Of a stretch of 64,000 bases of DNA, positions 8,701 through 42,600 are shown piece by piece (positions within the stretch are counted from its first letter, which is position 1; every line of letters starts with the position of its first letter). The notes under the pieces were generated by a model that saw only the letters and a list, made by a program, of their open reading frames with translations, was not told the DNA's origin and did no database searches. Origin of the DNA: Pocillopora verrucosa (taxonomy: Eukaryota); contig NC_089320.1 of NCBI RefSeq assembly GCF_036669915.1, forward strand, positions 15,915,874 through 15,979,873, given 5' to 3'. Position numbers and translations under genes: made by a program.

Positions 8701-9550
8701 CGGATGAAAATTTGTCTAAATGGTAGTTACGCATTAAGTCACCAAACTTTGTGAGGTTTTTTCGTGTTTATTTTTCATGTTGTTTCCAAGCTGATGACTG
8801 GCATGGAAAATCTTTTTTTTCAGTTATCTTCTCAACCAATTACATGTGTTGTTTTTACTCCGTCCAATTATTTCACATGGGATTATATAAATGTTTCTTT
8901 CGGGTACACTAACAAGCGACTAAATCGATACAAACGAACTTGTGTACTTTTTTGACTGAAACAATTTCAAAATATCTTTTTACCGATAATTTGTTAAAAA
9001 ATAAATATTATAAAGAATAGAACATCAAAGAAAACATTTCGCCCCTTTAAGATGACCCTGCAAAGCCATAAACTGAAGATTCCAGGACGGTGGGTAGAGT
9101 AATTGTATCCAGCTTCGAACAGGTAAACAAGCTAAACAGCTGTTAAATGTTTTTGATATGCGAAATTCATTTATTTTGATCGAGACAAAGCGACTTTGGA
9201 GGTAGGGAGAAAAAGGTATCGGTCGAGCATCACTAAAATCTTGAAAGATTGTTAAATTGGAGATTTTTTTTTTTTTTTACATTGCATGTAACTGTTCCTG
9301 GTTTTAATTGAACAAAGAGGACATCATGATACGTAGATTAAAAACTGAATAATTTCAGTGGTTATTTTTCAATAGATGCAATCGTAACAAGATTCATCAA
9401 ACTGCGAGAGACGACGCGTGAGCTGGGACACTCATTAAACTCCAAAAGGGTAATGTTTCTCTAATGAAAAAGTTTACTCGGAAAACCAAACACTTGTATT
9501 ACCAATCATCCTTCACTCTGGGAGCTTCAAATCCGAGTTTGCAAACAGAA

Positions 9551-15452: not shown

Positions 15453-15605
15453 ATGGGTACATTGAAAGTCTCCGGCGTCTTTGAAAATTGCCAGTTCGTG
15501 GTTGATTTTGCTGCTTCCTTGTCGCTAACGTACAAAGGGAAGGAAGAAATTCGACGAAAGATCGTAGAAAATGGCGGTACATTGTCATATGTACTAACAA
15601 AACAG
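15453..15605 (+). CDS. PARP4: PARP4-like exon 1 (start codon, BRCT)
   Basis: ATG at 15453. MGTLKVSGVFENCQF..IVENGGTLSYVLTKQ. Donor GT at 15606. Phase 0. Confidence 0.6.
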
Positions 15606-18600: not shown

Positions 18601-21600
18601 TTATATGAAGGTTATTTTTTTTTTTGGCGGGGGGGGGGGGGGGGGGAACCAGAATTTTTTTCCTGAAAACCATTTTACTATTGAAGGTTGCCAAAAGGTG
18701 GCTTTTTGTAAAGAAAATGACCTTGGAGCCCTACTTTAGCTCTGGAACTCTGGTTGTTACAATTTCAGACATGCGAGAACTTTAAAGATTTGCATGACTT
18801 GGAGAATCCCCACATAGGCTTACAAGATTTGAAGTTTGGGTAAAAATTATGTTAAACCTGAATTTTTTAAAGTAACAATGAAGACCTTTAGTTATTAGGT
18901 AATCATTGATAATAAGCGTAATTGATGCTCTAGATATAGCATTGCTTCTTTCAGAAAACAAATCCTGGTGAGGGTCCTCTTCTTCTTTACTCTCTGGAGT
19001 TGCACTTCATTCCTTCACATGTACCTTGCACCAGCTCAAGATACCGCTTATTTACGCACCAAGGTACCTTGATGGCATTCATCATGGTAAGATCAAATTT
19101 TGGAGTGTTGTTAGACAGTTAAAATCAGTTTGAGTTTTATCTCCTTTTGTGCCAGATTATGATAATGTAGCAATTGAACCACAAATTATATGTAGATACA
19201 AATGTTTCAAATTTGGTCGTTGACAAAATTAGTGCCATCAGCCTTGCTGTTGTAATTTCTTCAGCAAGATGTGGAAAAACAATACTGTGTATCTCTTGCA
19301 TTGTTACTCAGCCCACTCACAGAAATGAAATTAACAACAGCAAACTCTGCTCGAGTATTTAGCCTTGGGTTGTAACTCCAAAGAAAAGCAATGTGATCAG
19401 CAGTTTTGAATATTGACCTCTTAGTAACTAAGTGCAAGGGCAGTACTGAGGAATATTGGCCTAAGGTCATGGCAGTATGGACTGCAGGCCAATATTACCC
19501 AGTGCAGCTCAAGCAAGTAAGGTTAGTAAGTAATTTCATACATCATCATGGCACTTGGATTAAACTTGTCTGGTTTGAATTTACCACCTCTTTGTAAACA
19601 CTTCTGATAATCATTTCTGTGGAAACCATCTGTATGGCAAAATCCCAGCTAAGTAAGAACTAATCAGAATAGTTGGATTAACCTCAAGGCAACCTGGCTG
19701 TAGACATATATGTAATAAGTAATATTGCAGAATTTGGCTTTTTTCTTTTGAAGCAACAAAAATTTTATCCCTCATTAAAAGGTGAATATGAAAAATGTAC
19801 CTGGAGCCCCATTACATAAGATGCACAAGACTTAACAATATGCATTTACTGTATGGATACATCACACCTTAGCAAAACATAATTATTTTTGCTTTAAGTG
19901 TGATTTCTTTTAGGTTACCGGTAACCTTTACATTTGATTCTTGCAGGGATATAATGAAGGAACAAAGGAGTGCAGATATTTCAGCTCTTCTGAGGAGGCA
20001 TTTGGAGCATTCATTGCTATAACAGATCAGCAATTTGCAGACGGTTACAAGAAATTATCAAAGTATCCATCACCTAATATTGGCTCTGACAGACTGAAAC
20101 AGGTGGGTATTAACTTATGTATTTAACAAAAAATGGTAATTTTTGTCTGAGTAAAATAGAAGAAAATGAGAAATTCCTTGATCTAGAGTGAGAGTAGTCC
20201 TGGAAAGGACTATTGTAAGGGAGGGTGACAGAGGCTTTGACAATCTGTTTGGAAATTATCCTCACAGAAAAAAGATATTTGATAGTGTGGTCTGATTGTC
20301 CTAGTGTGAATAGTCCTGAGTCCCAATCGCTTTGACAAAAGGCTAACACTCAAAACGTCAGCCTTTTAACTCTTTATGGTGGCCAATTCGCGTTATCAAC
20401 TTAATTGATAACACTAAATTACACTGTTATACCCTCCCACTGACACAGTACCACTGTTTCTCTAGAAACTTACCCCCTTTATTCATTAGTCCTGAGAGGG
20501 ATTGTTTTTGGTAGAAGTGATTGACACTTTGGCAACCTTTGTGGAAGTCGTCATCAAAGTTGACTCTGACAAGGACTCCAAGAGTTACTTACATCAAGAT
20601 TTTTGAAATTTCAGTGATTTTCTTTCCAACAATAGTCCTTCTTGGGACTACTCTTACCCACTGATAGGACAACAAGATTGAATATTGCTCTGTAAGACAA
20701 ATTTATGGCATAAAAGAGGATGCTCAAATCGTAGTATTTTGTAGAACAAGATACAACATATCTCAAACTTATTTCCCCAGGAAAAATATCTTTTTGTTGT
20801 CTATTGATATATGTCTCTTGTCTATTTTCAGTTGGTGAATGAGGAATCATCTTCTCAAGAAGATTCTTCAATCTCCCCTGAAGTTGCAAACCTTATCAAT
20901 TACATTTGGAATGAGGCAGTAGGCAGTCTGGCAGATATTCTGGCCACTCCTCTCAGTTCCATCAAACTTGAGGATGTAGAGAAAGCTGAAGCAATCTTAC
21001 TTTTATTGAGAAAATCAATAGATGATGGTGAAGGGGTCAGCACTATTCACCAGCTATCTGATGAGTTTTTCTCAGCTATTCCTCACAAGAACAGAGGAGA
21101 AAACATAAGTTCAAAGCGTCTCATTGCTCAAAAACAAGACTTTTGTCAAGTAAGGAACATCTCAGATATTAGAAAAGGTTGATTCATGAGTGTTTTTTAT
21201 CATGTGGGTGGGAATAGTTGTTTAACCCTTAAATTCCTGAGATCTGATTGTTAATTCTCCCCTCTATTTGCTACACATGTTCTTGTAAATTAGTTAGGAG
21301 AATTTGTGATTACAACATCTACCTGAAAAGTTTTAAGTATTTTTATTACCTGTTTGCTGGATATTACATGGAATTAAAGGGAGATGTTATATGTTAGTAA
21401 CTTCTGGGAGTTGAAGAGTTAAATTGCTGGTGTCAGTTATACTGTTGATCATGAACATCCTTTCAAATGGCTTACTGGTAAATTTCATTGTATTTGAAAG
21501 GAAGTTGTTTGATTCACCAGTTCTGAAATACTGGTGACAATTTTAAGATTACAGTTTGGGTAGGTACGGTAAAGCTTATAAGGGTTACCCATTTCTTCTG

Positions 21601-24600
21601 ATTGTATCTTAAATTATCATTATTTGTTGACAGCTTATTAAAGACATGGTGAGCATTGGCGAGTCTACAAACTGGAAAACCAGACAAGATGTACATTCCA
21701 AGTACAGGGCACTCAAGTCCTATATTGAATGCCTTAACCATGAAAGTGATGGCTTCAAAAAAATCCAAAAGCTTGTTAAATCAAGCGAAACAAGGTAAGA
21801 AAATCAAACAACTGAAGTTGAGAACTCCACTGTAAAACAACTACTAATTTTTTTTAGCAACACTTCTGGAGATTTGATAGCATTCTACAAGTGTGTGAAT
21901 CACATTCAAAGAATTGGCTGTAACCACACAAAAGGGTGGGAGACGAGGTAGCCTCACAGTTAGTGCTCTGGACTCAGGGTCAAGCGGCTGGTCTCAAGAC
22001 CTGGTGTTAAGGTTTTTATTGGCTGTATCCTCCCAGAATTAGATTTTATTTGATTCCAAGGCTCTACCTCGTCAAAAAAAACTATCCTTACTCATGAACA
22101 ACAACCTCTCTCAAAGGCTTAAACTCAATTCTGGTATGTGAAAGCTATGCGTGGGTCAATAAACATGCCCTTTGATAGGATAAACAGTATTCGGTTTCAT
22201 GCCAGGTTCTAATTAAAAATTATACAACTGTTGGCAAGGTTCAATTCTGAGATTCTTAAGGTTCAGTTCTTAATGTTCGTGTTCTGTTTCTTCACACCTG
22301 GCCAGGTCACTGTGTTGTGTTCTTTGGCCAAATACTTCACTCTCACAGTGCTTCTCTCCACCCAGGTACCGGCCAGCGGTCAGGGAAGCCTGATGAAAAG
22401 CTGGGTGGTTACCTGGCGATGGACAAGCATGCCATCCAGGGATTTGTGCTTTGGAAACCGGGATAAGCTCCGGATTGGGAGTGGGGAAGGATGGGGGGGG
22501 GAGGGGTAGGATTTAGTCTACCTATCGTGTTAAAGGTGTTCGTGATAGATGTATTTTTAGACATTGAACAGACGTAAGTCAGAGATATAAGAGTTGAATA
22601 TAACTTGTAAATGTTGCTCTCTTTGTCAGTCCTCCAGAGATTGATGTACTCAATGTATACTCTATCCACCGTCCTGTGGAGGAAACTGCCTTTTCTCCCC
22701 ACATTGGAAATAATGCTCTTCTTTTCCATGCATCGAAGGTGAGCGCCATTTGCAAAAGTAACGCTTAACTGTCACGTTCTTGTTAGTAATTCTGCACTCT
22801 TTCCTTTTCTCTAGTTTTCTTCTATAGTTTTGTGTATGTTAATATTCTGTTTTAATTTTAACCGCGCGTGCACTTGATATCTTAAATCGTTAAAAGGAGA
22901 CGGTAACAGGACAAGATATTAAATTGATTTACCCGGAGGTTTCCTGTAAGGAAGATACGTGCGCTAATGGACAGTGGAGCTGAAGACAGTTGGCTGCATA
23001 TATGTAAAGGGTATATGTAATGATGTGACTTTAATTTTATTGCAGGTGGCAAACTTTGTAGGCATACTTTCAAGGTACGTCTTTATGAGTATTATTAAGA
23101 TTGTGGATTGTTGTTGTTATAACATTGTTCGAAATTATATCGAGCTTTCTTTTCTCCTATTTCTCAAACCTTCAAGAGTCATGTACAGTATCATATTTTA
23201 GAGGAGGAGGGGAACATGTAAGATGTACTTTAAATTTCTTGTAGAGGGCTTCTTATGCCTAAAATTGTCGTGGATGACTTTGGAGGACAACGTTCAGACC
23301 CAGGAATGTTAGGAAGTGGGATTTACTTTTCCAATTCTGCCAGGTAGGAGCTACTTGTGTGCTGAATGATCCAGCCTCGATAATCTACAGTCAGTGCCTC
23401 TCAATCGATTCAAACAATGTGGTAATCAATAAAAGATCTCCTCACGGGTTTAACTCTAGAAAGCCACACCTTTACGGGGCGTTGCGATATCTTCCACCGG
23501 TTTTTATTGACTCGCGCCACGTATCACGCTTTGGAGCGGTACTGTTCTTAGTCTGCAGCCAGGATGAAGTTGTCACTTCTCTAAATAAGATACTTCGTCT
23601 TTTTTTTTCTTTTCTTTTTTTTTTTTTCCGGGAGGAAGAGGAGCGTTTGCTGCACACATGCTGGATAACCTGAGTTCCATCTCTTACTGTATCTAAGTGG
23701 GCGAAGTTAGGAAAGTCTTATATCAAAATTAAGCTCAAACCTCATCATTTTCTTACTTTTTCTCATACAGCACCAGTGCCAAGTACTCGGCACCTGGAAG
23801 CAAGGGATCAAGGCTTATGCTTGTGAATGAGGTCGCCTTGGGTAAAGTCAAGGTAACAATCTTGAAACTCATAGTAACACGAGAGGCTTCTAAAAAACCT
23901 TTTAAGATGATGATGAACAACACAATATACCATAGCCTGTATGAAACGTCCTGTATTTCCTCTTTTTCCTACGGAAAACGCTCTGATGAAGTAACAGAAA
24001 TGGGTGAGTTCACATTTCACATTTCACATGTAGGTCGCCCAAAATATGTGGTTTAAGTTCGAGTTACCCCCAAATTGCAGTCAGAGCTTGTTGCGGTTTT
24101 TGTTGCTTGAAACTTGAAACGACCAAGAGTATTGCTACTGCATCTTGATGGGACGTAGGGTTATCTCAGGTTGCCCCCCCCCCTTCCTCTCTAGCCCTTC
24201 CTCCCCCCTCGCCCATTTATACTCATGGGTGGAGAGAGGCTCTGTGACAGTAAAGTGTTTCTCCAAAGTAAACAGCACTATAGTTCTGACCAGAATTCGA
24301 ACTCTTACAATGTGATTGTGAGTCTGGTACCTGAACGTTAATCGTCGAGCCTCTATGTTCGATCCCAAGGGAAGGGGGGGTGGGAAGCCAATTAAGATGT
24401 TTCTATTGGTCAATAAGGTGTGACGTTCAAAGCACAAGCAACAACCGATGTAATTGGTGTTTTGTGGTTCCTCAGGAGTTCAAGACATTTGCCATGGATT
24501 TGACCTCGCCTCCACCAGGTTATAGCAGCTGCCATGGAGTGAGAAACACGGATAATGAGCCTTCTGACTTTAAGGTCGGTTGTGTAGGCATTTAAAGTAA

Positions 24601-27600
24601 GCAAGTTGCTTCCACCAGACTGCTGTAACTGACAAAATCGTTTTTGATCTTCAGGACGACGAGTTTGCCATCTACAACGGGAACCAACAGAAAATAAGGT
24701 AACTGTAACAGTGCTTGGTGTCCATCACCTAGCTTTGAGGGTTGCAGTTAAGAGGACTTCATAGATCTGATTCATAAACTGCTTTACATTTTCTTTTAAA
24801 TTAGTTGGGAGGATTCGGTGTTATATCAACACATATTTTCTTGATAAGATTTTCCATTCTCGGTATTTGTTTGTTGGATAATAGATTCATATTAAAAAGA
24901 GACGGTGCATCTTGATCAATTCTGGATCTGTAAAATAAACTGAGGCCAAGCTTTGGCCGGGAAACGATTTTTCGTTTCTGGAAAAGCCTGAAGTGATACA
25001 GTCTCTCTTCCTTCCCAGAGTTGTTAGGGAGCTTACTTGAGGCTGTTTACTACCCTAAGTCACGTAATGCTAAAAAAAAAAAGTGCGTTAAGCCTCGGCA
25101 GTTATGCAGGGCCAGATTTATTTGATACTTTTTTTAGAACTATAACCTTTATTTACGATACGTGTGTGTAAAATATCTGTCCAAAGATCTTTAAAAATTT
25201 CCATTTTTTTGCAGATATCTGGTTGAGTTTGTGTTGCGTGGTGATGTTGTAGTCGCTGATCGAGATGATGCCTCGATTGATAGCGGGTTTTTCGATGATA
25301 GCTCGGAAGCTGCTCCCGAAGGTATTGAATGAACGTCCTCCATTTTGAAATTTTTTTTGTAGGTTTCTAAAATTAAGGTGACAGGTCGCTGTTATTCAAT
25401 TATATTATGGATAATAAATTGCGATATGAGTCTATTTGCTATTTGTTATTGCTTTTAAGCATGTTCTTACAATAGTTGAAAATGTAACTAGAGTTTTGAA
25501 CTGATTTCAAATGCTTTTTCCTAGACCATCGCGGCAGTGTAGTCCTAACGGATGTGATGTCAATTGTGGATCCTCTGACTAAAGTTGAGGCAGGACTTAA
25601 GGGAACTGGAGACAAGTCCATCCCGTTGCAGTCAGTTCATATTAGAGCTAGGCTGTTGGATTTGGCGGCTCAGGTTGGTCAAATTGCCGAGGAAAATTTG
25701 ATTAAGCTTATTTGGTAGGCTACATCATTCATTCCCTTTCTGATTGAGCTGCATCGCGATCTCTGATATTATGTCACATTTTTTCCGGTTTCTGGGCGCG
25801 AAAAATCAATTTCATCTTGAAGAAGGCTACAAAATATTAGATCGGCAAGGTGGAAAAACATCGAAGGGGAGAAGATAAACCAAGAGGGAGAAGTATGGTC
25901 AAGGATGGCGCAGATTGACACGGATTGCAAATTAGTAATGATTAGTAATGACTAATGATTAGTTTGATTAGACAGGAAAACACCAGAGAGGCAAGACTAA
26001 ACTAAGAAGGAAGACAAGACAAGACAACTTTATTTTACCAGGGTAGCCCAGTTAGCTGCAAGGCTGGTATCCTTAGGGGCCCTGGAAGAAGTAAGGTCAA
26101 GGATGGAGAAGATTCATACGGATTGCAAGCGATCTAGTTTAAGATGCCCGAAGCGTGACGTAGCTCCTATCGTCTCTCTCCAAGAGCTGTTTGAATTTTT
26201 GGCAATGATAAGCTTACAAATCATTTTTATATTCTTTTTTTTTTTTTTACCACAGGTGATAGTTTTTCAAGAGTACAGCAATAACAGCTCGACGCCCATA
26301 GAAGCTAAATACGTTTTCCCTCTCGACGACATGGCAGCAGGTTTGTCTTTAGTCGACGGCCTGATAGTTTATAGAAAAATTCGAAACTCTTTTTAAAAAA
26401 CTTGTGTGATGAACTTTCGAACTCCTGTAATTTGTATCTTGGCTACGGCAGATGACCTTCGGACTTGTGGTTATAGTTGAGGGGTAAACTTTGTTGGATT
26501 CTCATATTATCCAGGTGATTCACTTCTCTGTAATAGTTTTTTCCCTTGTTTTGGTTGAGAGAATGAATTCAAAATTAAGGGTTCACGTTGCCGACGAATC
26601 GGGCCCGCTGTTTTATCTTAACGGGGTTTAAAAAGCTCCCGAAGTACTGTTGAATAGAAGTTTAACATACCTTCTCTGTTGACGTCCTTCTGGTCATAGT
26701 TTGTGGTTTTGAGGCGTTCATCAATGGTAAGCATATCGTTGGTGAAGTGAAGGAAAAAGAACAAGCGCACAAAGAATATAGGGAAGCCATCAGCAAGGGG
26801 CATGGGGCCTACCTTATGGACGAGGAAACTCCGGTAGGTAACGTGTTTTCCACCTGATTTTCAACCACGAAACTTCATCTACGTTGTGTTGTGATATCGA
26901 AGTTGCTCATTTGAATTGAGTGAACACAAGAAGAATTTATAGGTCTAAAACTTCGAAAAGGTTACATTTTTTTAGTTATCCTGTCTCCTTCAAACAAAAT
27001 TTTGGCTATCATGCAATTCGTACACCTCCACCTTTGTAGCGAAGTCTTTGCTATTTTGAGATGAAGGTAATCGTGGATAGCTTTAGTGGTGGCCGAGAGG
27101 GATTACCTCCTCGTAGATTTCTTGAAACGTAGAATCTTTAGAGTAAATGTTCATTTGTTGTTATATGGAGTAAGACTGCGCCACCACCACAACATGTCGG
27201 CCCCTTTCTCCGAATTCTCTGGGTTCCTCAAGGTAACGCTAATAAGATCCCACCCTTTATTTATATCTCATATTTCTCTTGCTTATTTCATATTTACTCA
27301 GGATGTGTTTACAGTCAGTGTTGGAAACCTTCCTCCCGGTGCTCAAGTATTAATCAAGATAACTTATGTCACTGAATTAACAGTGGACGGCGAACACATC
27401 TGTTTCTCTCTCCCAGGCTCCGTGGCTCCGTGGACACGTGACAAGGCCTTAGAAGAAGTAACTCAGGTCATGAGCCACATTTTATGCCTTCTTTTACTTA
27501 CTTCTTTTGTGTTGTTGCGCGTTTGACTTCAACTTCATCGTTGAATCAAGTTCTTTTGTTTTTTTTTCTTATCAGACTTATGTGGATACAGTGCGGATAG

Positions 27601-30600
27601 GGGAAGTGGGACCCTGGTGAGTTCTGGGATGGGAGTGCGTTGATTTGTTGCTCGGGTGCAACCTTGAGAAATTAAGCTGCATTTCCTTTTTTTATTATCC
27701 TTTATTCGTTGTTCTCTTTCAGCGATCCCGCCTTTGACGTTTCTATGAAAGTGTCCGTGGAGATGCCCTTTGAGATTCGCTCACTTGACTCACCGACTCA
27801 TGCGATGAAAGTTAAGGTAATATTCATTCACTCACGCTTTTGTGGAGCACTTTTTCATTGCGTATCGAAAGATGTAACGGACTGCATTGGCTACTTTCAA
27901 CTATGTTTTGTGACTGGTCCAGAAAACTCGCGCCTTCTTCTTCTCAATTAATCAGTTACAAGACTAAACCGATCACGACTTGATCGCCCGCGTTTTCCTG
28001 CGCTTCACGATATTTTTCTCAAGTTTTGGTTTTAAAATACGCAATTGAATAGCGCTCTCTAGTTATATTTCTTGACTTCATTTCTTACTTGTGCCTTTCG
28101 CATTTCCTCTTCTATCCACGATTCTAGAGAGGAAGATTTTAATCGCCTTTTGTCAATTGTAAACTATATGTTGATAAAGGTAGATGAGTCGCTGCAGCGA
28201 ATTTTGAAAACCTAGCGTTTCGAGCATTAGCCCAGCATAACGTTGTTATCTGAATATTCATGTTTGTTTGTTTCTCTATCCAGCGAACAGCCACCAAAGC
28301 AGTGATAGAACTGGAGCCAGGCCAGTCTCTTGGGGATGGATTTCAACTTTTGATTGGTTTAGCAGAGATTCACGTACCCCGGATGTGGGTGGAGCGGCAC
28401 ACCAACAATTCAGATAGACAGGTCAGTGGTCAGCTCTCTAGTGTTATCTTTCACATTGAACACTTACAATCACTTGTACTTTTGATGTAAAGAGGCGGAA
28501 TAGCAAGGTTAATACTCAGGACCTGTGACGACCTGCCTTTCCATTCCAAAGTAGTTAAGATCCTCTTAGTTGCTTTCTGCTGTGGAAGAGCGATGAGGGC
28601 CACGTGTGTTCTTCTCTAAAGACCTTTAATCTCATGGACGCATTTTTCCTCTAGGCTTGTATGCTCACATTTTATCCTGAGTTCGAGGCTAAAAGTCCTT
28701 CTGAAGTTGAAGTGATATTTCTGCTTGATCTCTCCTGCTCAATGAAGGTCAGTGTTGATCTCTGTCAATATATTATTTGTACGTTTCTGTACAGAAGCGC
28801 GTAGTAGTTATGTTCTTCGCATGCTAAAGCAAATCCCTCTGGGGATCAAATGAGAGCTGTTCATTTCCGGCGCTAATCTCAAACTCCAGAACCATTTAAT
28901 TAGGAAATTTGCGTCATTTTTCTATGGTTTGTCCACAGCTGTTTAATCTCAGGTTGTGCTATTTGTACTTTCCGAAGGAAACGATAAGCCAGGGCAAGGA
29001 AGGTTCCTGGGTCAATTTTTGCCGGAAACGTGCCGCTGGCCTCTCAGAACCCCAACCCCATTGTAGTATATACTTTAGCCAATTACAGACCCCATCTTAA
29101 GGTGGTATGATACCTTCAAAAAGGGAAATTTTTTACATTATTTGAAACATTTTTATTAGTCCCTCCAGTGATAACACTCACTGAGAGAAATTGTTTGGCA
29201 CTGTTGTTGACACCATCTGTTACTATAGCAACAGGACCACGCCCACCAAACCCTCATTTTACAGGCATCACGCCAACAACAATAACTCTATAACAAAAAA
29301 TCCCATGGCTCTGAAATTTTCAGGATATCTTATGCATAGATGGATCTGTGCAATGAACCTAAATCATTTTATACAACATGGTTATAACCATGTCAAATAA
29401 TGAAAAACTTTCACATAAACAAATAATGGGCCCCTTCTGGAAAAAAATTTGCCTGCCATTGAATCATCAATTTACCTTTGTACTTTGTTTTAGGTTTATT
29501 GCACAGAAGCATCATTCAAGATTTTCTGTTGAAATTTCATGAAATTATCTTAAATAGTTTTTGAACTGAACATATTGAGCTACTCGGAGTTCTATCAAAA
29601 TGCAGTTTGATGGAAAAATGCATTTAAAAGTTGTATTTGGGTTTGAAAACCCTCTGTTCAATCTCTGAGCAAAGGAAGTGTCTTAAAATGCTCCAGCAGC
29701 ATAAGTAACACCCTCTGCTTGTTGGTCCTTGTCTTCTTTCTTCTTTCTTTGTCCCCTTAGGACCTTTCTCCTCTTTTTCCTTTCCTCGCTGTGTTTGTAC
29801 TCAGCACCACGAATTCGATCCATGTCAAGGTGCCTACACCCCTCTTCAGTGTATTTTCCTGGGGAAATTTTGAGTGCTTTTAGAAGCAGTAGAACAGCCC
29901 TTGCTCCAATATTGAAGTGGTTTATGGCATCAAACAAGCCAAATTCCAGCAAGTCAGCTCCCACGAAAACGTCCTTGGGAATGCGCTCCCACACCATTCC
30001 ATTTACAGCTTCATTCTGATTTTGGGTTTTTCCATGAAGGCATTTTTCTAGCAAAGAATCTTCACTTAATCTTTGGTATACAGGTTTGACTTTTGCAACT
30101 CAAAACTCAAAACTCAACTTTGCCAGGTTTTGATTCCATGGCATCGGACTTCTTAGTATGTTGACCGAGGGTGTTCGAACCATGTGCTTCTTCTTTCGCT
30201 TCTTTCGTCCTCTTGGCATTTTCTTTCGAAGGTTTCGTGAATTGATTTCCCGAAAACTTCCTTTTAGGACGCCTTATTGCACGATGCTTAGGAGGCATGG
30301 TTGTTAACGTGAAAAAAGAACGAGAAACAGGATAAAAAACTCAAAACGCTACGCCACTAGTATTGTTGTGAATTTCGCAACGACAATTTCTAGTGTTTCG
30401 CAGGCTCATCAACTACGACAGGCTAATCGTTGTTATGTACGGGGTAACAGAGAGTCCCTCGTCACGCAACGATCGTTTTCCGGGCGAAAACAACTATTAG
30501 GGGATTGTTTCTTCACTGTAAACAAGATAAAAACAAACCTGTTGCCCCTGGCAACCAAAGACCTGGTCTCAAAAATGAGTAAATACTGGACAACAAATAA

Positions 30601-33600
30601 CATTTTCATGAAAAATTAAACTGTGTCGTTAATACCAAGTGAAATACGGACCTTTTCCAGCAATAAAAATTTTTAGATAAAACTTCGAAATTTTTGCCTT
30701 TTTTAAGGTATCATACCACCTTAATCACTTTTGGTAACATGGTATCAACTTTTTAGCCGGGAATCTTCCCATCTTTAAATCCCTACTTGACAGAAACCTC
30801 CTACCCCTATAATGCCGAAAATGGGCGAACTCATTCTAGTAAATAAAGGGGGTAAGTTTCTAAAGAAACCGTGGTGCTGCATCGGTGGGAGAGTAATGTA
30901 TTATCAACTGAGTTGAAAAGGTAAATTGGCCACCGTAAAGAGTTTAAAAGCTGACGTTTTTAGCGTTAGCCCTTCGTCACACACAACCCACAATTCCTCC
31001 AATCGCTCTGACGAAGGGCTAATGCTTTGAAACTCTTTACGGTGGCCAATTTACGTTATCAATTCAGTTGATAATACTAAATTAACCATTTTAGTAACTC
31101 CATTGAAAATACGACCTCATTGCAGGCAATCCAGTCGTTTGAGCGACCCCATCCAGTGGCACATTCTCATTAGCCTTTTACAAGGAACGAACCAAGCTCT
31201 AGGGTTACTGTGAAATCTGATTTCAGATCTAAAAGCTTTAAAAGAAAATTCAGTCAAATTCTTTTTGTCTAGAATATGTCTATTTGATGCTTTAAAAATA
31301 ACATTGAAAACTACCCCGAAAAGGATTTTGAGTAAAGGAATAAAGAGACCCAGACTAAAATTTAATCCTGGGTTAGCGCTAATCGGCCTTCGAACAACTG
31401 GGCCCAGAACTGGGCCCAGAACTGCACCATTGTCCTTATTGCTCTGAAAAAAATATGTTATACCGCTGACATCTGTTTTCTCTAACAGGGTTCAAATCTT
31501 AACGACGCCAAAAAGATACTACTGATGTGCCTTAGTCTTGTGAAGGAAGGTTGGATTTTCAACGTACTCGTGTTTGGAAGCAGTAAGTTCATTTGTGTGT
31601 TAAAGGGATTTTTTGAAAAAAGATATACCACGGACTTACACATTGCAACTCAAATGCGTTTCTTCATTGGAAAAGAAAGTTTCATGTGTCTTATCTCATA
31701 CTAGTCCATGGTCATATTTTCGTCAGAATAGCTAATTGCACTCGCTCATGCGCCTCACATTCGTAGACTCCGTTGAAGCCACGTTAGACATAAGAAGGCA
31801 CCACTCCTAAAGCACGAAGATCAGAACAGTGCCAAAAGAGAGGCTCGAAAAAAATCTGTTTTAAACGAGACTTAGAGAAAATTTTTTAACAACTAATGTC
31901 TTCAGTTACCACGATGTTTGCACATACTCGTCCCCATGATGTGCAATGTTCCTGGAGCCGACACCACAACTGTGGTGCGATATTCGTGAACCGTTAGAGT
32001 GGAATCGAAATATCTGAAGTTTTAATTTTTGAACACATCTTAAAACACCTGGATTTAGATGTTAAATGGTGTGCATTTTGAAGCGTAATTTTGTAACAAC
32101 TCAAGCGTGCAAATATGAAATAACTATCCTTGAAAAACGCCAGTGCATTTCAGCATGATAATCAGTCACGCGTTAACGTCACGTCGTAACGATTGCGGAT
32201 TTCAAGACATTTAAAAAATTTCACTTATGGTGTGACGTATTTTCCTTTCTTCAAGTACTCCCTTCAAGATTCTTGAGCGTAAGCTTCTTCTCTCCAACCT
32301 TTTTATTTAAACCTCTGTTCAGTGTGTTCATAACTCTCAAATGAACAAAGCAATGGTTTAACTGTGCGAGAGAGAGAGAAAAAGAAACTTGGTTTTGCTT
32401 CATTCTTTACAGATATTGTGAAAATCACTCTATTCTGTCACGAGTCAATTATTTAGTCAAAAGATAATCAGACTCTTTAATTGATAGTAGTTTAAAGTCC
32501 ATATACTCAAAACTTTGAAACCATTATTAAATCCAACAGATACAGATGCTTTAGAAGGATTTTACTGTAAAGTTTTCTCCAGAATGTGTCTTTTAATTTG
32601 TCGTTTTCTAATGATTTTTCGTTATTTAAAATGTGCAACCCACGAAGATGACTTTGAACGTGCGCAAGTTAGATCTGCTCAGTTCTTACGTATTGTTTGG
32701 AATTTGCATAATTGTTTTTACAGTTTGCAATATCGATTCATCAACAAGCGAAGCGCCGGCGCCGGTTCAGAAAAACAAAAATATTTTTAGGAGCGGAGAA
32801 ATCGTTAAAAATGACGAAGGTGCTGACGAGACAAGGAAAGCTTCAACAAGTCGAACGAAACGGTGCGGTGATGTCGCACGATTTAGATGATAGTGTTTAC
32901 AAAAATGGGTCACGGAAAGGAGGTAAAACTGAAGAGGTCCACCGCTACTCCATGTTATTACGTGAAGATCAAATCCCACAAGCTTTCCGCACCGAGTTTC
33001 TTACGACAAGATACCGGCCGCGAAACCTGACCGCTCTCGATAGCGTGAAGAGTGTTTTCTACGCCAACAACGAGACAGTAAATTTCTGGAGCCATGTTCT
33101 CTCCGCCGTGATACTCATTGCCCGCTACTGCTCAGTGGTGTGGAACCATAATCCTTTCACTGATCATTTTTATTTTCCACTGGTGTCGTACACTCTCGGC
33201 TGCTGCATTATGTACACGATGAGTTGTGTGGCCCATATGTTCAGCTCTATGACCGAGCTACAAAACCACATCGGGTACTACCTGGATTACGCTGCTATCA
33301 GCGTATACACATTTACCAATGGCCAAGCCTTCTATTTTTACTGCCATCCGCTGGGATCTGGGCTCCTTTTGTTCGACTGGCGGGAGTTGTTCCTATTCGT
33401 TTCAGCCCTGATTTCGTTCAGTGCCACTTTCAACTGTTGCAAGTCTCGTCATCAGTGGTTCGATCTCCGTTTCATCATCCGCACCGGTTTCTACATCCTA
33501 TCCTGGTTGCACAACTGTTCACCGTACTTCGTTCGTCTGTTCGTGTGCTCTTCTGATCCTGCATGCAATCCCGATTCTCTTGGTCTCTTCGTAGGGTGTC

Positions 33601-36600
33601 TTATCTCGTTCGCCGCCGCTGCCTTAATGAATATGACCCGAATACCTGAACGGTTCGTTCCCGGGTTCTTCGATTTTATCGGGCAAAGTCACAACTTTCT
33701 TCATGTGCTTACCACTACCGGTGACCATTTTGCATTCTCCGTTCTCCTTTCGGATCTCTCAGCCAGAAAAGAATTCCTCATCACGGAACATACACCGAGT
33801 TTTTTCGAGACGATCGGTTTGACTCTTTTAGTTCTGGTTGGGAATCTCGCTATCGTACTCTGGTTTGCTAGGTCTTTAATTTCGAATTCATCCGGTAAAA
33901 TTGGACATGATAAATCTACTTAAACTGAACTTTTAAATTTCTGCGAAGGAAGGCGAGAAGTTCGCCTATGTTGCAAATACTGTAATTTGATCGAAGTGGA
34001 TGTTTCCTCCAAAAGTAAAATTTATGTTAAGTTTGCCATTGTTTTTCTAAAGAGGAACGCGTGAAAATTGTAAAGAAGAACAAGCGGTTTGCTTTCTACT
34101 GTTGAGATACATATAGTATGAATTTAGTTGAATATTTTTTATGTTATTTTAAGTACAGATGTTTTATGTCACCGAGGCAAGTTGTCCTCTTCAGAGAAAT
34201 GTCCGAAACTTTTTCTTTCAATTAGGACTTGATCTTTTAATGAGGTTTTTTATATATATTTTTAATTAGAAAGGTATTTGAATTCATTTTTTGCAGATAT
34301 CAATGGCCTGTTAACACTTCAGTGTTCCACGCTATTCTTGTGCTGATCATTGTAATGTAATGTCCATGAAAATTAGATGAAAATGAACTTTTTACAGACA
34401 TAGTACCTTTGTTCTACTTGTAAATTGATTTCATGATTGTCTTTACTCGCAAAATGTTTTTACCATTGTGGTTAAAACAAATTTTGAGACAGCTTTGGTC
34501 ATCGTACTCGAACTGTTATCAGAATAACTGCTTTTAAGTGGCGCACATTCAATCCTCGTTTCAGCAGCTCTCTTTAAATGAACGGCCCTCCAATAAAAAA
34601 TTAGAAACAATTGAAAAAAGCGCTCTCTTCAGTCCCTTTGTTGTAAGGACGAGTTACAAAACCTTTAAGAACAATGTTTTATTATGAGAGAGGATTAGAT
34701 TTCGGCGTTGATTCTTTGACTGGTTTATCACACTCGTCTATCCTTTCTTCCAATAACTGATAATAGATTCTAACTAAAGCATTTCAATAAAGGAAACCAT
34801 TTCCTTTTCTACATAGCGCTCATTGCAAAATTGTAAGTTGTGACCGATCCTAACATTCACCATCTTTCTATTCTACTCATAGTATCTGGTTTTTTGTTGT
34901 TGTTTTTTTCTTTGTTTTTTTCATTCTGCATCTTAAAGTGACCACATCTGGCCTCGTTTTTGGGAAAAATTCAATGAGTGTCTTCTCTTGCCCTTGTAAA
35001 AGCGCCCATTTATTTCCTATATTAAAATATACGCCCCAAACGCGAGGATTTTCAAAGGTGCTTGCTTCCGGATGTTTTTATGGGTCTGATGTAGTTGTTG
35101 TTTTATCAAGAGCTGCATGGAATTTTGATATGTTTCCTCGTGATACCTAATCTCAAGTAGAGAGAATAATATTATTTTCAGATATTACATCAACTTGTTC
35201 CTGTGGTAGCCCTGCTCGCATTGTGCGGGGCTCCACGTGAAGAGCTATTTTAAGAGCTCTATAAAGCAGTCTACTTTTAGTCTAGTTCAAAGGATATATT
35301 ACGACTTTGGAACTCTATCCACTTAGAGCATCCTTTTGGTGATATGTTATTGCATCTAAAAAATTCTTCTCAATAATTTAAGGGAATTATCCGTCTAGAC
35401 AGAAATTATAACAAGAAGACTGACTGTACGTGCGTTTCATGCATGCGCTTCAACCGTTACATTCAAGCAAACGTCGTGATTTATAGCACTACGATTAGCG
35501 AATTTCCGCTGAAACGCTAACGTTTCCATAGAAATTTGTTAAATAAAACTTTTCTGGTGACTTGATTGTCCAGAGTCATCACCTGCTTTGATGCTATAAA
35601 GAAACAAAAAAAGCGAGAAGCCCTCATGAGGGTACTGCTTCTAGCAACCTGTTTCTCTATCCAATGAATGAATTTTATCGTTTTGTTTCCGCTACAGTAT
35701 TGTATCACCTAGCTTTGTTAGTTCGTTATAATGTCAGTTTAAAGCTCATACCGAAACATCCCGCGAAGAAAACGAGGAAAATCAGATTCTGTTGATTTTT
35801 TCCTAGATAGAATAAATCACAACGGAATTGTTTTACAGATTTTTTACATACATCTCTGTACAATTAACTCCATTTCATGCGGTCCGTTTTTTTGTAATAC
35901 ATTGCAAAGTCGATGGTTCGAATACTCGTGAGTGGAATTGATAAATTTGTGGAGTTTATCACGAACGTTGTTTTTACTTGAAATACCAAATTTTTAACTA
36001 GTATTACTGTTTTGTTTCAAATTATTTTCAGTTTGGCCCATATTTACGCAAATATTCAAATATAACAGAGGGTCCCTCGAGACTTATACAATAAATATTA
36101 ACATGAATAATGGGACTTTCCTAATCTATCAAATTTATGCGCCACAGGCGAAAAAAATCTCTTTTGTTCGCCTTTATAATACTGGCAAAGGTAATTGCTG
36201 GCGTTCTAATGCTGGGAGATGCTTTCTAGAAAGATGATCTGGTAAATATTTAAAATTATATGACGTTAGTCAACGCGAGCAGACGCGCGTGGGATTCTAC
36301 AAGCCAGTTGCAATTGAACTTATTGTGCCATCCATTTCATACCGGTTTTAGCGCTGGCTTGTTTTGTTCGGGAATGTTGTATTAATCTGTGGTTTCGTGT
36401 AGTTCTTAATGAACTTTTCAAGAGAATGTCTGCGTATCTGTCCTGCCAGTGTAGCAGAGAACGATTTTATTTATTCATGATAAGCGTCGCGACTGGTAAG
36501 CGGTCCGATCAGCGCTTGGCGTTTTCAGAACTGGTAGCGGTTTGATATCAGTGCTTGACTTGACACCGGGTAAGCTCAAGGAAATTGAGCAAAAGCGAAA

Positions 36601-39600
36601 GCACCTAGGAAATCAGCCGTAGGTGTGAGCCACATTTTTTATTTAACGGCGGGAATCTTCAAGTGAATGACCCACAAATGAATAAACTGTTGTCTAATTG
36701 AGGAAGACAACGCCATCAATCAATTTTATCGCTGAGTGAAACGAAAGAAGGAGCTGCTAATCCGTGAGAATGCATCTAAAGACGTACAAAAGGCCTCAAC
36801 AACCCAACGAAATGAAAGAAAGAAAGCCGACAAACTGTCACGAATGGGAAAATAATTTTTCAGCCTACGACAATATGAAGAAAACTTCAAGTGTAAAAGA
36901 GAACTCTGAAGGGGCGAACAAGAAAAAGTACGGCTTCTCAAGCAACCAAATCCCTGAAGTGTTCAGGACGCCATTCATCGTGTCTGGTTATCGACGACCC
37001 GGATTAACCTTCTGGGAATGTATCAGAAGTTTGCTCCGATCTTCCAACGAAACTATAAACGTTTGGAGCCACCTGCTTGCTCTAGTACTGTTCGTGTCTG
37101 TAAACATGACGTCCTTACCCACGACTGACCCATTTTTTCTGCCGCTGATCTCCTTCGCCGTGGGAATTTCGGTTCTGTATTTAATGAGTTCCTCTGCACA
37201 TCTTTTCAACTGCATGTCAGAGGATTCCCATAGAATTTGTTTCTTCTTTGACTACGCGGCTATCGGGTTTTACACGTTCACGGCCGGGCAAGCAATGTTT
37301 TCTACTCTAGGACCGCGGGCGCGTCTGCTTGGGCAGTGCACGATTCGCTTACCGTTTTCCAGTCTATTTCGACGTTCTTTTCGTTTTTCATAACTTTTTT
37401 GTGTTGCGCATCAAACCATCCACGTTGTAAAGATTACAAAGCCTTGCTAAGGGTCGGCGTTCTTGCCGTAAATTGGCTTGTTATCACATCACCGTACACG
37501 GTCCGTATTTTGTTATGTGAAAACGCCGACCCAGCGTATAACCGCATATCCACGGTGTATTTCAAACGTCATGTTGTCTTCTGCGGTTTAGGCGCCGCGC
37601 TGTACGCCGCGAGAGTTCCAGAACGTTTAATGGCAGGTGTGTTCGATAATTTTGGCCAAAGCCACAACTTAGCTCATATATTGATCGCCATGGGTATCCA
37701 ACAGGCGTTCAACGCGGCCCAAGTGGATCTTCAAGAAAGGAGATCAGCTCTGTTAGATCGTTTTTCTTCACAGCCCACTCTTATGAACACGGTCGGCGTG
37801 GCCATGTTTGTTCTCTTTGGACATGTTGCTATTGTCTTGTGGTGTGCGGGAAAGCTGCGTTCTGTAAAGCACAAATCTGAGAGTATTAACAATTAGTTAT
37901 CGCATAAACTGAGAATGATTTCAGACTTATTTTTAAGGCTTTAAATATTACATTTTCTTTGAGTCCTTTCCGCATTTTTCAAAAACGGTGATATAAGATC
38001 TCCCTTATAGGAAAGCAAAAATAGTGTAGGAATGAGTTTTATCTCCATTTAATGTAGCTACTTAGCGATGTATTGACTCGTTCTCCGCAGCGTGCAAAAT
38101 TATACTGATGTGATTTATGTAGGCGACAGAGAGCCTTATCCAAGAGTGTTTAGCGGCATAAAGTCGCTCAGGTTGTTTAAAGAACATGAATAACGAGCCG
38201 TTGGGCGAATGATTGTCAGTCTTTCTGAGTATTCTTTGAATATCCCGTGAGTGTTTATCACGGCATAAACCCTTGGAAAATGTATCTTACTTCTTTCATG
38301 ACATAACCTTAACATGGATTTGTCAGGTGGTGAATTAAATTTATTTCAATCATAAAAGCGATTGTTATGTGGTGCTTAATTGTTTATTGGCGTTAGAAAC
38401 CAATCAAAATGCTCGAAAGAGTAAGGAGGACCTGCATTAGCCCAATAGTTGAAAAAAATGAGATGAAAGATTCAGAAGAAGTTACGAAGAGAACTAACCG
38501 GGGCTAACGTAATTTTAAATGAAGCACAACCTCGTTCAGAGACAAATAGACTGATCAATTTTGACAGTGAAATCAAGAATATCGTAACCAGAAATTGTCT
38601 GACGAATGCGAAAGAGTACTACTGCATACAAAACCTTGCAAGCTTAGAACTCAGGTCTGCACCAGGAATTTTTTCTCGGTTTTAGTTTATTTCCGCGAAC
38701 TCTGCTCTTCTAGCGTTTTTCCTATTCTGTTTACTCAATTCGAATTGTATGAAAAGCAGTCATGCCAGAATGCACGAAATGCCATGTACATAAGTTTATA
38801 TTTAGCTACTTTATAGTCACAATGTAGTACCTCTTCTTTAATTAAATGGTTCTAATTTTCCTTGCAGTCAGTACTGAGCAATGGTCATAAATCCTCCTCA
38901 AAACCCTCAACAATTGTTTTACAGAAAAAACCTTCCGAACCAGCTTCAATCGCAGATCAGAGAATCAAAAGTTTCTGTAATTTATTTGAATTAGAATATT
39001 TATTGTCTCGTCAACAATTCAGATGTACATATGAATAGCGTTTGATTTACCAGGTGCTCTCCTCATTTTGTGGGAGTCAATGGCCTGGTAGAACGTGGGC
39101 TCGGAAACGGAATTGACCAATCAACTCGCGCATAACTTAGAATCCTTGGTTATAAATTTGATTGCCATGAACATTGAAGTTAAAATAAGAGTAACACGCT
39201 CCATTTCCATGCTCTTTTCGTAAATCCGTGGACGCTACATTTCTGTCAATGGTTTGTTGACTACAAACAAGAGATTAGTTTATAAATATATATTTAAATA
39301 TATGAAATTCATATATCTAAAATCTTCATTCATTACTTGGATGGTTTATTTGGACTCAACACATTGACCAGCTCCCAGTTGGCTTGTTAGCTCAGTTGGT
39401 AAAGCGCTGCACCGGTATCGCAGAGGTCATGGGCTCAAATCCCGTACGAGCCTGAATTTTTTTCAGGTCCTATTTTCAACTACTCGTTTCAGTAGTGTTC
39501 TTAGCTGCGAGGATCTCTTAATTTCATCTCTTCACCGCAGTGCAAATATATGAAATTCAGATTAGTTTGTAGTTTAACTACTGTGTTTTGACGGCAGGTA

Positions 39601-42600
39601 GGGAGGGACACGTTTAATTGTCAACTTACTCTGTAAACGTTTTTTAGCATTTCCATCGCGTCTTTAGCCCTTTGTGCAGCTTCAAATTGATATTAAATCA
39701 GTTCAGTTAACTGGCTGTACTTGTCTGTTTTCAGAACATTCAGAGCTGTTTCTATATAGCGTACGAAAAGACAAAGATTCTTTTGAAGAAGCTAAAAAAT
39801 TTGTCGAGGTAAGCAAACTCCTAAGCTTCCGTAGGGTGGCTCAGTTGACCAGAGACATATCGGCGTATACTAGGAGCTCATTAATGGGCTCCTGCGTTTA
39901 CTCAGATTCTCGCAATGGTAAAATATGAGCACAGGCTGCATACGATTTTCTCAGTTATTTCACTTGAAAATTTCTCATGCTGGCAAAATTTACCGCGTGT
40001 AAGGCACGTGAAAAGAATTTAAAAACTTGTTGAGAATGTAATTCCTTCCTCAGATTGCCTTCTCATTGAATATAACATTCTTTTTCTGTGCAAACGAATT
40101 AAAATGCCATTCCATTCCTTTGGTTTTCAACCCGGTTGAAAGTCAAGATCGTTAGTTATTACGTCATTTTTTTCCAGTCCTTAACCGCTGACAAAGGCAG
40201 CACAGAGTTGTGGCGAGTCCTTCGGAAGCTGTACATGTTACCCACCTTATCGACCGCTGACCACCCACGCAATCTGTTCTTAATCTCGGATGGCCACGTG
40301 ACAGAAGAGGAAACCACTCTTGGCTTGATCCGCAATCATTGCCAAAGTGACAGGCTCTTTTCCCTTGGTGTGGGGTAAGTAACCGGAAAAGGGCCTTTCC
40401 AGGTTAGGATCGTATTGTACCATATCTCCCAAAGGCTTCAGCTCTGTGTTGGATGCTCAAGCTAAGTTTAAATTTTGCAAACACTCAGGAAGGGCGTTTT
40501 GAGCTCTCAGATTTTGTAAACTTAATGTTTTTTCCATGAGATAAAGCTTCCCTTGTTTTTAATCTTAGCGAAGAGATCCAAAGATGTCGTCCAATTCGGT
40601 CTTCTTTTCTTTTCTGATGACAGTCGACTCAAGTCCGTGTGCTGCGGTTGGATGCCGGTACCAACTGAGCTACGATGCTTCAAGTTAGGATTGGGCAGAT
40701 CTCGGGGTGCGCAGCATCCCGTAAAGAAATGTGATCTCTGATACTAAATTATTTTTTCCTGTTCTACCTGTAGACGATAAGTGACAATTCGGATTTTTGG
40801 TTAAACGCCACCGATGACTTGAGGCGTTACCTTTAAAATTGCTATATATATCCGTTTGTATGCGAGAAGTTTCTCATCACTACACCTTGTTTGGTTCGTT
40901 TCCTTTTCTCCTCAGTTCCACGGCCAATCGTTACCTTCTACGAGCAATGTCCAGAGTTGGAGCTGGTGCCTCAGAGTTTTTGACGGTAGTGCCAAGTCTA
41001 AATGGGAAAGAAAGGTATGGAATTCCTGTCAACAGAAAAGGCTATTATGACTCGAGATGAAAATTGATGGCATGAAATTATTTATCGATGACAACTTCCG
41101 CCAATCTTCATAGTCTCTTAGAAAACGGCCATAGCTTCTGGATAAATTGATTATCCAAAGAATATTTAAGAATTCGTTGTTGAGAAAATAATGTTTATTT
41201 AGGTGAGATCGCAGTTGTCCAAAGCTGAGCAACCAGGCCTGACATCAGTGGGAGTAACCTGGCAGCAGCACGATTCCGGGTCCAGTCCCCCTGTACAAGC
41301 TCCTCACCAACTCTTGTCGCTGTTCAACGGTTCTAGACAAGTGGTTTATGGATTTGTTGATAACTGCACACAGGTAACTACTGATTTTCTGACATCAAGT
41401 TCATTTTAAGGCTACACTGATGCTTTGAATTTTTTCTGAACTCCTACCAGGCCACCTTGAGCGCAGAGGTTAACGGCACAACGGTATCAACCATGGTGTC
41501 TACCGCTGATCTAAATATCACTAAGGGCAAAGTAAGTGCAAGTGGAACAAAACTATCCAGCTTTCAGTGATTGCATTTTTGGTAATTTTCTACAATCGCT
41601 TCCTTGCACAGATTCTTCATCAGCTGACCGCGCGTGCAATCATCAGAGACTGGGACGAAGGTAGCCTGCATGAGCAGCGCACTGGGCACGAGGTTTGTCT
41701 CAAAAACATAGCTAATATTAAATAATATCATTCAACATTGCATTTATTTTAGCCGCATGTTGTCGGTGCTGAGTAATTCAAATCGTGTTGGAGGGAGAAA
41801 GAGGGATTGGCCCTAGTCTCCATAAGATGAGACAGAAACAATGAGGATTATGACGATAACTTCAAATGGTGATTGACACATTACACACTGATTCACTATC
41901 CTGATGGAGGGGTCTGGGTTCAAACCCTGCTCAGGGTTATCATGTTGTGTTCTTGGCGAACACAATTTACTGGCTGCGAGTTGTTCAAGGGGCTGACTAA
42001 GAGGCTAAACTAACACTAAATAACGGATAAGTCGCTATCTAGTGGATAACTGCGAACAAAACGTATTGCGCTATCCACGGGATAGAGATTTGTCTTGGGG
42101 ATTGAGTTATCCACCATTCAAAGAACCGGGGCAGCAGTTGCATGTTAATACCCAAGTGCTTACTTATGTCTAGGCCGTCGAGATTTGCCTTGTTCATGAC
42201 TGAACCGAGGTTGTTGTTATTTTATGATTCCGTAGATTGTGAAGAGAGACAGGAAAGACTTCATCGTTTCCTTGAGCAAGACGTTCTCCGTGGTATCCAA
42301 ATTCACAAGTTTTGTTGCAGTTGAACACAGAGAAAAGGTAGAAATGAGATAAAGGGAGAAATATGCCCAAGAAACCATGCAATTTAGTCTCATTGATGAA
42401 TAGCGTATGTACGAAATTATGATTCTTGCTTCATTTTGAGATTATTAAGAGTAACCGAGCCTTTCTAAGTCTTTTTTCAATTTGCTGAAGATTCGACCAT
42501 GGAGGTCGCCATATTAAATCTTTCTTAGCGATCTGGCTTCTTACCTGTGACATAACAAGGCTCATTCCCCACTCTTCCATCTCTCGCCAATTTGTTTGAA

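Follow-up and report, generated by a model that had tools for sequence, protein, structure and literature searches.

The question raised by this locus is whether two PAQR coding regions that lie in one long intron of a PARP4-like gene are separate functional genes or parts of their host, and whether both of them are intact. We examined it in the window, which here means the whole 64,000-nucleotide stretch of Pocillopora verrucosa DNA that was analysed. The locus was found to be a real but ordinary nested-gene arrangement. We hold with good confidence that the intron contains two separate, functional PAQR genes of the mPR type, each with a single coding exon, that they are old paralogues nested there since before the sampled coral lineages separated, and that the break in the reading frame of one of them is most likely a consensus error.

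A PARP4-like host and its vWA-splitting intron

The host gene is located on the + strand, and Pfam profiles were matched in the order BRCT, PARP_reg, PARP, VIT and vWA (E = 1.6e-12, 3.1e-09, 5.4e-09, 8.4e-40 and, for VWA_3, 6e-16), which is the architecture of PARP4, the vault PARP (vPARP). To our knowledge, no PAQR gene is nested in human PARP4. The scan was performed on stop-free segments joined by eye, and the borders of the upstream exons (15390..28801) are approximate. Within these, BRCT was placed at about 15.4-16.8 kb, PARP_reg and PARP at about 20.8-25.3 kb, VIT at about 25.5-27.5 kb, and the beginning of the vWA domain, with the motif DLSCS, at about 28.66-28.75 kb, all on the + strand. 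A full-length PARP4 homologue was not found; the three vWA exons described below, used as the query, retrieved nothing beyond single-exon metagenomic ORF calls. No Pfam match was obtained for the putative downstream exons or for the ORF at 50389-51747, which may or may not belong to the host gene. A long-period repeat was also detected in the repeat search, and Tandem Repeats Finder reported none at a score of at least 200, the period being beyond its limit.

The vWA exon on the 5' side of the intron (31489..31582, +), provisionally exon 22, reads GSNLNDAKKILLMCLSLVKEGWIFNVLVFGS, and its last base opens a split codon. It falls within the VWA_3 match and is 100% conserved in the Tara contigs and 53-81% conserved in the assemblies L005, L006, L007, L009 and L017. 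The intron that follows (31583..39734, +, 8152 nt) is a phase 1 GT...AG intron with a GTAAGT donor and a TTTTCAG acceptor. A preliminary description of this DNA had ended it at 39733, but the acceptor AG occupies 39733-39734 and the intron therefore ends at 39734. On the 3' side, the next exon (39735..39808, +), provisionally exon 23, reads (K)HSELFLYSVRKDKDSFEEAKKFVE before a GTAAGC donor, and its homologue is present in L001, L005, L006, L007 and L017. It is followed by a further vWA exon, provisionally exon 24 (40178..40375, +; SLTADKGSTELW...LFLISDGHV...SLGVG), which is part of the VWA_3 match and is 73-91% conserved at other loci. Joining the two exons that flank the intron restores the split codon A|AA and rebuilds ...FNVLVFGS-K-HSELF..., in agreement with the phase match that had been described for them, and the VWA_3 profile aligns across the join without a break.

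PAQR1 and PAQR2 are each contained entirely within this one host intron, where they are arranged head-to-tail, with all three genes on the + strand. Together with the HlyIII matches of both copies, the GT-AG borders and the continuous VWA_3 alignment bear out the description of two intronless PAQR genes lying in the direction of their host inside an intron that splits the vWA domain.

Motifs, structure and class of the two PAQR proteins

PAQR1 (32811..33923, +) is, as had been described, a complete single-exon ORF. This intact intronless gene encodes 370 aa and is mPR delta-like. It matches the HlyIII profile (PF03006) with E = 5.6e-25 and 88.8 bits against a gathering cut-off of 26.2, and the two halves of PAQR2 also score above the gathering threshold. 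The exact PAQR1 protein was present on 20 Tara contigs, and the Stylophora protein XP_022795713.1, named 'membrane progestin receptor delta-like', is 86% identical to it.

The metal-site motifs ExxNxxxH, SxxxH, the D of DYxxI, and HxxxH were observed in both copies. The earlier statement that both carry every hallmark of the family holds for these motifs and fails for SSDP, which is present in PAQR1 and replaced by NADP in PAQR2. The pattern NxxWSH, taken literally, fits neither copy; the sequences are NFWSH and NVWSH, inside the canonical ExxNxxxH that is common to both. The zinc-site and catalytic residues E88, N91, H95, S138, H142, D159, H294 and H298 are invariant in 32 cnidarian and sponge homologues, and the zinc-site residues of the PAQRs align with the site of AdipoR1. 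The ligands of the zinc would be the histidines of ExxNxxxH and SxxxH, the aspartate of DYxxI, and HxxxH.

The AF2 model of PAQR1 (pLDDT 83, pTM 0.81) has eight long helices, and its sole strong matches in the PDB were the class I PAQRs AdipoR1 and AdipoR2 (5lxg, 5lwy). The seven-helix core superimposes on them with a TM of 0.80 by target length (E = 8.6e-09 for AdipoR2, 5lwy), with the zinc-ligand positions aligned. The AdipoRs are nevertheless without an eighth helix, and their sequences match the coral proteins weakly (E~1e-7, 19-22% identity). An eighth C-terminal hydrophobic segment was found in both copies, at 335-353 in PAQR1 (model helix 332-361) and at 342-360 in PAQR2, and an extra transmembrane helix C-terminal to the core has been described for mPRs (PMC9179843). 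Every named homologue of the two proteins is a 'membrane progestin/progesterone receptor', and none is an AdipoR. The RefSeq names, the eighth helix and the weak similarity to AdipoR indirectly support the assignment of both proteins to class II (the mPR type), and the earlier placement in the mPR class and not in the AdipoR class is probably right.

Compared with the vertebrate class II PAQRs (PAQR5-9, or mPR gamma, delta, alpha, beta and epsilon), the coral proteins are alike in the HlyIII domain, in ExxNxxxH, SxxxH, D and HxxxH, and in the eighth helix. RefSeq names the orthologues of PAQR1 and PAQR2 mPR delta-like and mPR gamma-like, respectively, but there is no one-to-one orthology between the paralogues of cnidarians and particular vertebrate subtypes. 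Several vertebrate mPR genes, like those of the coral, have an intronless coding region. Each PAQR protein would combine an AdipoR-like seven-helix core and an intramembrane zinc site with an eighth C-terminal helix, and by analogy with the family, the two most likely work either as receptors that sense lipids or steroids or as hydrolases.

The broken reading frame of PAQR2

PAQR2 (36770..37896, +), which is mPR gamma-like, had been described as a complete ORF. In the window the region is 1127 nt long, a length not divisible by 3, and so does not form an ORF; the intact form found elsewhere has 1128 nt and encodes 375 aa. It falls instead into two ORFs that lie in different frames (36764-37393 and 37336-37896), and the HlyIII matches of its halves cover profile positions 4-89 and 107-220, with 59.8 and 52.9 bits, respectively (cut-off 26.2). 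The frame is shifted by a 1-nt gap in a run of T at about 37294-37297, where alignments showed T4 in the window and T5 in all eight of the conspecific contigs (GQAMF|FYSRT).

Two readings of this gap were weighed. It is possible, though we consider it doubtful, that PAQR2 is truly inactivated in the sequenced colony, as a null allele or a young pseudogene that segregates in Pocillopora: the reading frame is indeed interrupted in the window, and the protein has one private amino-acid change, T19K, relative to the nearly identical haplotype P0180. Against this, intact PAQR2 was found in eight out of eight independent Tara Pacific Pocillopora contigs (L001-L004 and L010-L013), which represent two haplotype groups, and the P. 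verrucosa RefSeq protein XP_058952383.1 is the intact 375-aa form. Among nine sequences, the frameshift is private to the window. Relative to the closest haplotype, L012, the window has five 1-nt indels, and at every one of them it lacks a base of a short run, as is typical of consensus errors. The PAQR2 orthologue group is also under strong purifying selection (dN/dS 0.12-0.16). The exact 207-aa truncated product is nowhere on record, which is weak evidence, since a single substitution would also prevent an exact match. Judged from these sequence comparisons, an assembly error is a likelier explanation of the break than a null allele, and the most probable cause is a single base lost from the consensus in a homopolymer. 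We also considered relaxed constraint on PAQR2 of the window, which has seven private substitutions relative to L001-L004 where PAQR1 has none; this was rejected, as the intact haplotype P0180, seen on many contigs, shares the amino-acid changes with a single exception.

Transcription units and the age of the nesting

Since the PAQRs lie on the strand of their host, they might serve the PARP4-like gene as alternative terminal exons, or be expressed only in obligate read-through or chimeric transcripts. The 33 open codons 5' of the PAQR1 ATG do contain three phase-compatible AGs; these AGs, however, are not conserved and have weak polypyrimidine tracts, and in the window as in L017, the ATG of PAQR2 is preceded by only three open codons, with no AG in a compatible phase. 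Protein conservation starts at the ATG of each gene (MTKVLTRQGK-like and MHLKTYKR-like N-termini), and the stretches upstream are not conserved. RefSeq models the PAQRs as stand-alone proteins of 370-385 aa in Stylophora, Oculina (XP_078372988.1 and XP_078355248.1) and P. verrucosa, and a fusion of half a vWA domain to a PAQR would be without precedent. We give this reading scarcely any chance of being right. Two candidate sources of evidence were rejected. Short Logan contigs with PAQR ORFs (L008, L014, L015 and L016) follow the genomic DNA colinearly and are uninformative about transcription units, and L014 holds host exon 22 together with intron sequence; the Oculina protein KAL9969635.1 (1605 aa) is a PAQR joined to a LINE and not a PARP4-PAQR fusion.

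As separate genes, the PAQRs most likely have transcripts of their own, on which translation begins at their own ATGs, and the copies carried by the host pre-mRNA would be spliced out along with the intron. A conserved non-coding block (36015..36769, +; about 74% to L017 by blastn) is a candidate 5'UTR or promoter of PAQR2; the L017 alignment is continuous from 36015 into the PAQR2 coding sequence, and short conserved islands were also observed in L005. We infer that both genes have promoters of their own and biochemical activity, and the reason proposed below for the stability of the arrangement is likewise conjectural. For transcripts and promoters of their own, the conserved start codons, the missing acceptor upstream of PAQR2, this block and the stand-alone RefSeq models offer indirect support.

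PAQR1 and PAQR2 form two clean orthologue groups and, being only 36-38% identical, are old paralogues. Both are under purifying selection as estimated from coding-sequence comparisons (dN/dS 0.12-0.22), with values of 0.17-0.22 for the PAQR1 orthologues. Nesting was observed in three other coral-like assemblies and in part in two more. The full order of exon 22, PAQR1, PAQR2, exon 23 and exon 24 is present in L005, L007 and L017, and L006 has a single PAQR in the intron, in the order exon 22, PAQR1 and exon 23. The PAQR1 orthologues across the nesting assemblies are only 55-74% identical, and the depth of conservation is an estimate based only on identity and on an NJ tree (L005, L006, L007, L009 and L017). 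At the one Nematostella PAQR locus examined, nesting was absent, the locus lying outside any PARP4 gene. These comparisons suggest that the paralogues entered the vWA-splitting intron before the sampled coral lineages split and have stayed there since.

Such retention may or may not reflect function. Host and nested genes could be co-regulated or could interfere with one another and be kept together for that reason, and the persistence of the arrangement among assemblies with such diverged PAQR1 orthologues, as well as the conserved block 5' of PAQR2, is consistent with this. A rearrangement that removed the nested genes would presumably break the host gene, and this passive constraint predicts the conservation equally well; moreover, the L006 lineage keeps only one PAQR in the intron, and the Nematostella locus is not within PARP4. 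We consider a functional role of the nesting improbable. A bolder form, in which two mPR-type receptors have shared the intron as a regulatory compartment since early in the evolution of stony corals, with host transcription gating the receptors or the reverse, and in which the PAQR2 frameshift is a segregating Pocillopora null allele, seems to us very improbable.

Nested genes, including those on the same strand, are common (PMC13309782, PMC5174743, PMC11694760), and in mammals, pairs on the same strand are found almost as often as pairs on opposite strands (PMC11694760). The coral locus resembles other animal pairs in that a larger gene encloses short intronless genes completely within one of its long introns; it differs in that two old paralogues share one intron and have been retained across several coral-like lineages. 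Our literature search on coral or cnidarian mPR genes and on PAQR nesting in PARP4 returned nothing relevant.

RefSeq already has annotations for the PAQR genes of related corals. Annotation easily loses intronless genes that are nested on the strand of their host, or fuses them to their neighbours, and in a GenBank model of Oculina the orthologue of PAQR1 is joined to the reverse transcriptase of a LINE. The PAQR2 frameshift serves as a warning of possible single-base homopolymer errors in the assembly. Beyond its bearing on annotation, assembly quality and its use as a marker, the locus does not challenge what is known of PAQRs, PARP4 or nested genes. It provides a marker of conserved micro-synteny for the coral-like assemblies that were sampled and a natural cnidarian case in which the transcription of host and nested genes can be studied.

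The PARP4-like host gene and its PAQR-bearing intron

Pfam searches on the hand-joined exon translations of the PARP4-like host gene recovered BRCT (1.6e-12), PARP_reg (3.1e-09), PARP (5.4e-09), VIT (8.4e-40) and VWA_3 (6e-16), which follow one another in genomic order. This domain set and order is that of PARP4 (vault PARP); the homologue search with the host vWA exons returned exon-sized fragments only. The upstream exon (31489-31582, plus strand) ends in ...FNVLVFGS plus one base, and the phase 1 intron that follows on the same strand (31583-39734, 8152 nt) runs from a GTAAGT donor to a TTTTCAG acceptor ending at 39734. After the split codon A|AA, which encodes K, come HSELFLYSVRKDKDSFEEAKKFVE and a GTAAGC donor, and the following host exon encodes SLTADKGSTELW...LFLISDGHV.... 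The VWA_3 match (profile positions 2-155) continues over the exon junction. The phase-matched intron splitting the vWA domain was thus recovered as in the preliminary description, with its 3' border shifted by one nucleotide (39734, not 39733).

To follow the nesting in other assemblies, the provisionally numbered host exons, PAQR1 (32811-33923, plus strand) and PAQR2 (36770-37896, plus strand) were placed by tblastn on loci of other coral-like assemblies. The full order ex21-ex22-PAQR1-PAQR2-ex23-ex24 was found in L017, L005 and L007, of which L017 groups with pocilloporids and L005 with Oculina in the tree. L006 carries a single PAQR, in the order ex22-PAQR1-like-ex23-ex24 (55% identity to PAQR1), and L009 shows ex22-PAQR1, after which the locus sequence ends. 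In Nematostella (DS469507.1, 685665-706693), a COX24_C-domain gene separates two PAQR genes spaced 5 kb apart, and a Peptidase_M13 gene adjoins the pair upstream. PARP4 exons were not detectable at this locus, and therefore at least this Nematostella PAQR pair, which may or may not be orthologous to the coral pair, is not nested.

Reading frames and identity of PAQR1 and PAQR2

ORF listing over 31-40.5 kb gave a single long plus-strand ORF at 32712-33923, whose first ATG at 32811 yields the expected 370-aa PAQR1; 20 Tara Pacific coral metagenome contigs encode the identical protein. The complete second ORF reported at 36770-37896 is absent, as the 1127 nt of this interval are not divisible by three and read as two ORFs in separate frames (36764-37393 and 37336-37896). 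The HlyIII profile (PF03006) was recovered in PAQR1 (E=5.6e-25) and in both PAQR2 fragments, which match its two halves (positions 4-89 and 107-220).

Three-frame reading places the PAQR2 frame switch at GCAATGTTTTCTAC, and adding one T yields ...GQAMFFYSRTAG..., colinear with ...GQAFYFYCHPLG... of PAQR1. PAQR2 is intact (1128 nt, 375 aa) in four Tara Pocillopora contigs (L001-L004), relative to which the window has lost one T from a T5 run; four further contigs, from a second haplotype group (L010-L013), also have T5. An excess of private PAQR2 substitutions in the window, seen against L001-L004, vanished against the common intact haplotype P0180, because the repaired window PAQR2 differs from it by T19K only. 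The window is 99.6% identical over 3.35 kb to L012, its closest haplotype, and all five single-base indels between them are bases absent from short runs in the window. This one-directional loss suggests consensus error, and the frameshift is probably an assembly artefact; a real null allele is the less likely explanation, though a substantial one. No record of the exact truncated product was found elsewhere, which is weak evidence.

PAQR1 and PAQR2 share only 36-38% identity and form two clean orthologue groups in an NJ tree. PAQR1 shares 86% identity with Stylophora pistillata XP_022795713.1, and its group (Stylophora, Oculina) is named 'membrane progestin receptor delta-like' in RefSeq; the PAQR2 group (P. 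verrucosa, including XP_058952383.1, and Oculina) is named 'gamma-A/gamma-B-like'. Together with the 20 Tara contigs, these matches assign the window to Pocillopora. There was no adiponectin receptor among the named homologues, and AdipoR1/2 appeared as the sole PDB sequence matches (E=1e-7 to 1e-5), in agreement with the proposed membrane progestin receptor (mPR) class. The motifs ExxNxxxH, SxxxH, DYxxI and HxxxH are found in both proteins, are unchanged in 32/32 homologues and align to the AdipoR1 zinc site. SSDP, which had been ascribed to both together with the other hallmarks, is confined to PAQR1, PAQR2 reading NADP. Both have an additional strongly hydrophobic C-terminal segment, and the AlphaFold model of PAQR1 (pLDDT 83, pTM 0.81) contains eight long helices, like mPRs, for which an eighth helix is a described distinction from AdipoRs (PMC9179843). 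AdipoR1/2 were the only strong PDB matches to the model (TM 0.80 on target), but at just 19-22% identity. The dN/dS values against two other species are 0.12-0.22 for both genes, and therefore the proteins of both orthologue groups are under constraint.

Evidence on whether the PAQR genes are independent of the host

The sequence evidence favours PAQR1 and PAQR2 being independent genes rather than host exons. Protein conservation begins at the ATGs, and the open stretches 5' of them differ in length and sequence. In both the window and L017, the PAQR2 frame stays open for three codons 5' of its ATG and no phase-compatible AG occurs there; the compatible AGs found 5' of PAQR1 are weak and unconserved. 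About 750 nt directly 5' of PAQR2 are conserved with L017, and conserved islands occur in L005 too. RefSeq models of the orthologues are stand-alone proteins. Short Logan contigs carrying PAQR ORFs are colinear with genomic sequence, and AATAAA/ATTAAA signals 0.4-0.9 kb 3' of both stops are at chance expectation in AT-rich sequence.

Open frames 5' of the PAQR1 ATG (32633-32810) vary among individuals through an indel. In one Logan contig this indel gives rise to a spurious 424-aa 'extended' PAQR1 (P0052); the extension is non-coding and unconserved. KAL9969635.1 (P0065), a 1605-aa 'hypothetical protein' of Oculina patagonica in GenBank, joins the PAQR1 orthologue in-frame with a LINE endonuclease/reverse transcriptase; it is a chimeric annotation of the equivalent locus.

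Neighbouring features and place among nested genes

Upstream of the PARP4-like gene lie three tandem, intronless rhodopsin-type GPCR genes (7tm_1; 1459-2460, 4791-5738 and 9464-10437, plus strand). In the third, a 4-nt gap near 10090 (GGAGC----TTGACGG versus GGAGTTTTTCTGACAG in copy 1) breaks the reading frame in two, and this copy is probably a pseudogene. A Pro/Ser/Ala-rich stop-free stretch of 453 codons (50389-51747, plus strand; ATG ORF 50437-51750, 437 aa), with no Pfam match, may belong to the PARP4-like gene as a large C-terminal exon or form a gene of its own. Minus-strand ORFs occur at 13372-14274 (300 aa, no Pfam match) and 56516-57316 (266 aa, sub-threshold DUF7491 only, 20.3 bits where the cut-off is 30).

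A 1.63-kb element with 37-nt terminal inverted repeats (TTAAGGTGGTATGATACC...) lies at 29097-30724, in the host intron before ex22, and has no Pfam-recognisable ORF. It was found in 0/8 Tara Pocillopora contigs, and is therefore a polymorphic DNA-transposon insertion. In L005, a reverse-transcriptase (RVT_1) fragment (15987-16517) lies in the PAQR-bearing intron, 3' of the PAQR2 orthologue; transposable elements therefore accumulate there independently across lineages. Three copies of a 1.6-1.7-kb tandem repeat unit (about 45590-49770, 74-99% identical) follow the identified vWA exons; at about 44.4 kb there is a (TA)n microsatellite.

Among gene overlaps, nesting is the most frequent type, more than one in ten mammalian genes belong to nested pairs, and same-orientation pairs are almost as common as opposite ones (PMC5174743, PMC13309782, PMC11694760). 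Nothing was found in the literature on coral mPR genes or PARP4-intron nesting. One factual error in the preliminary description (PAQR2 is not intact in the window) and small motif and coordinate slips aside, the locus was described correctly but is ordinary, since nested genes are common and the PAQR genes of related corals are already in RefSeq; it is a further example of host and nested genes.
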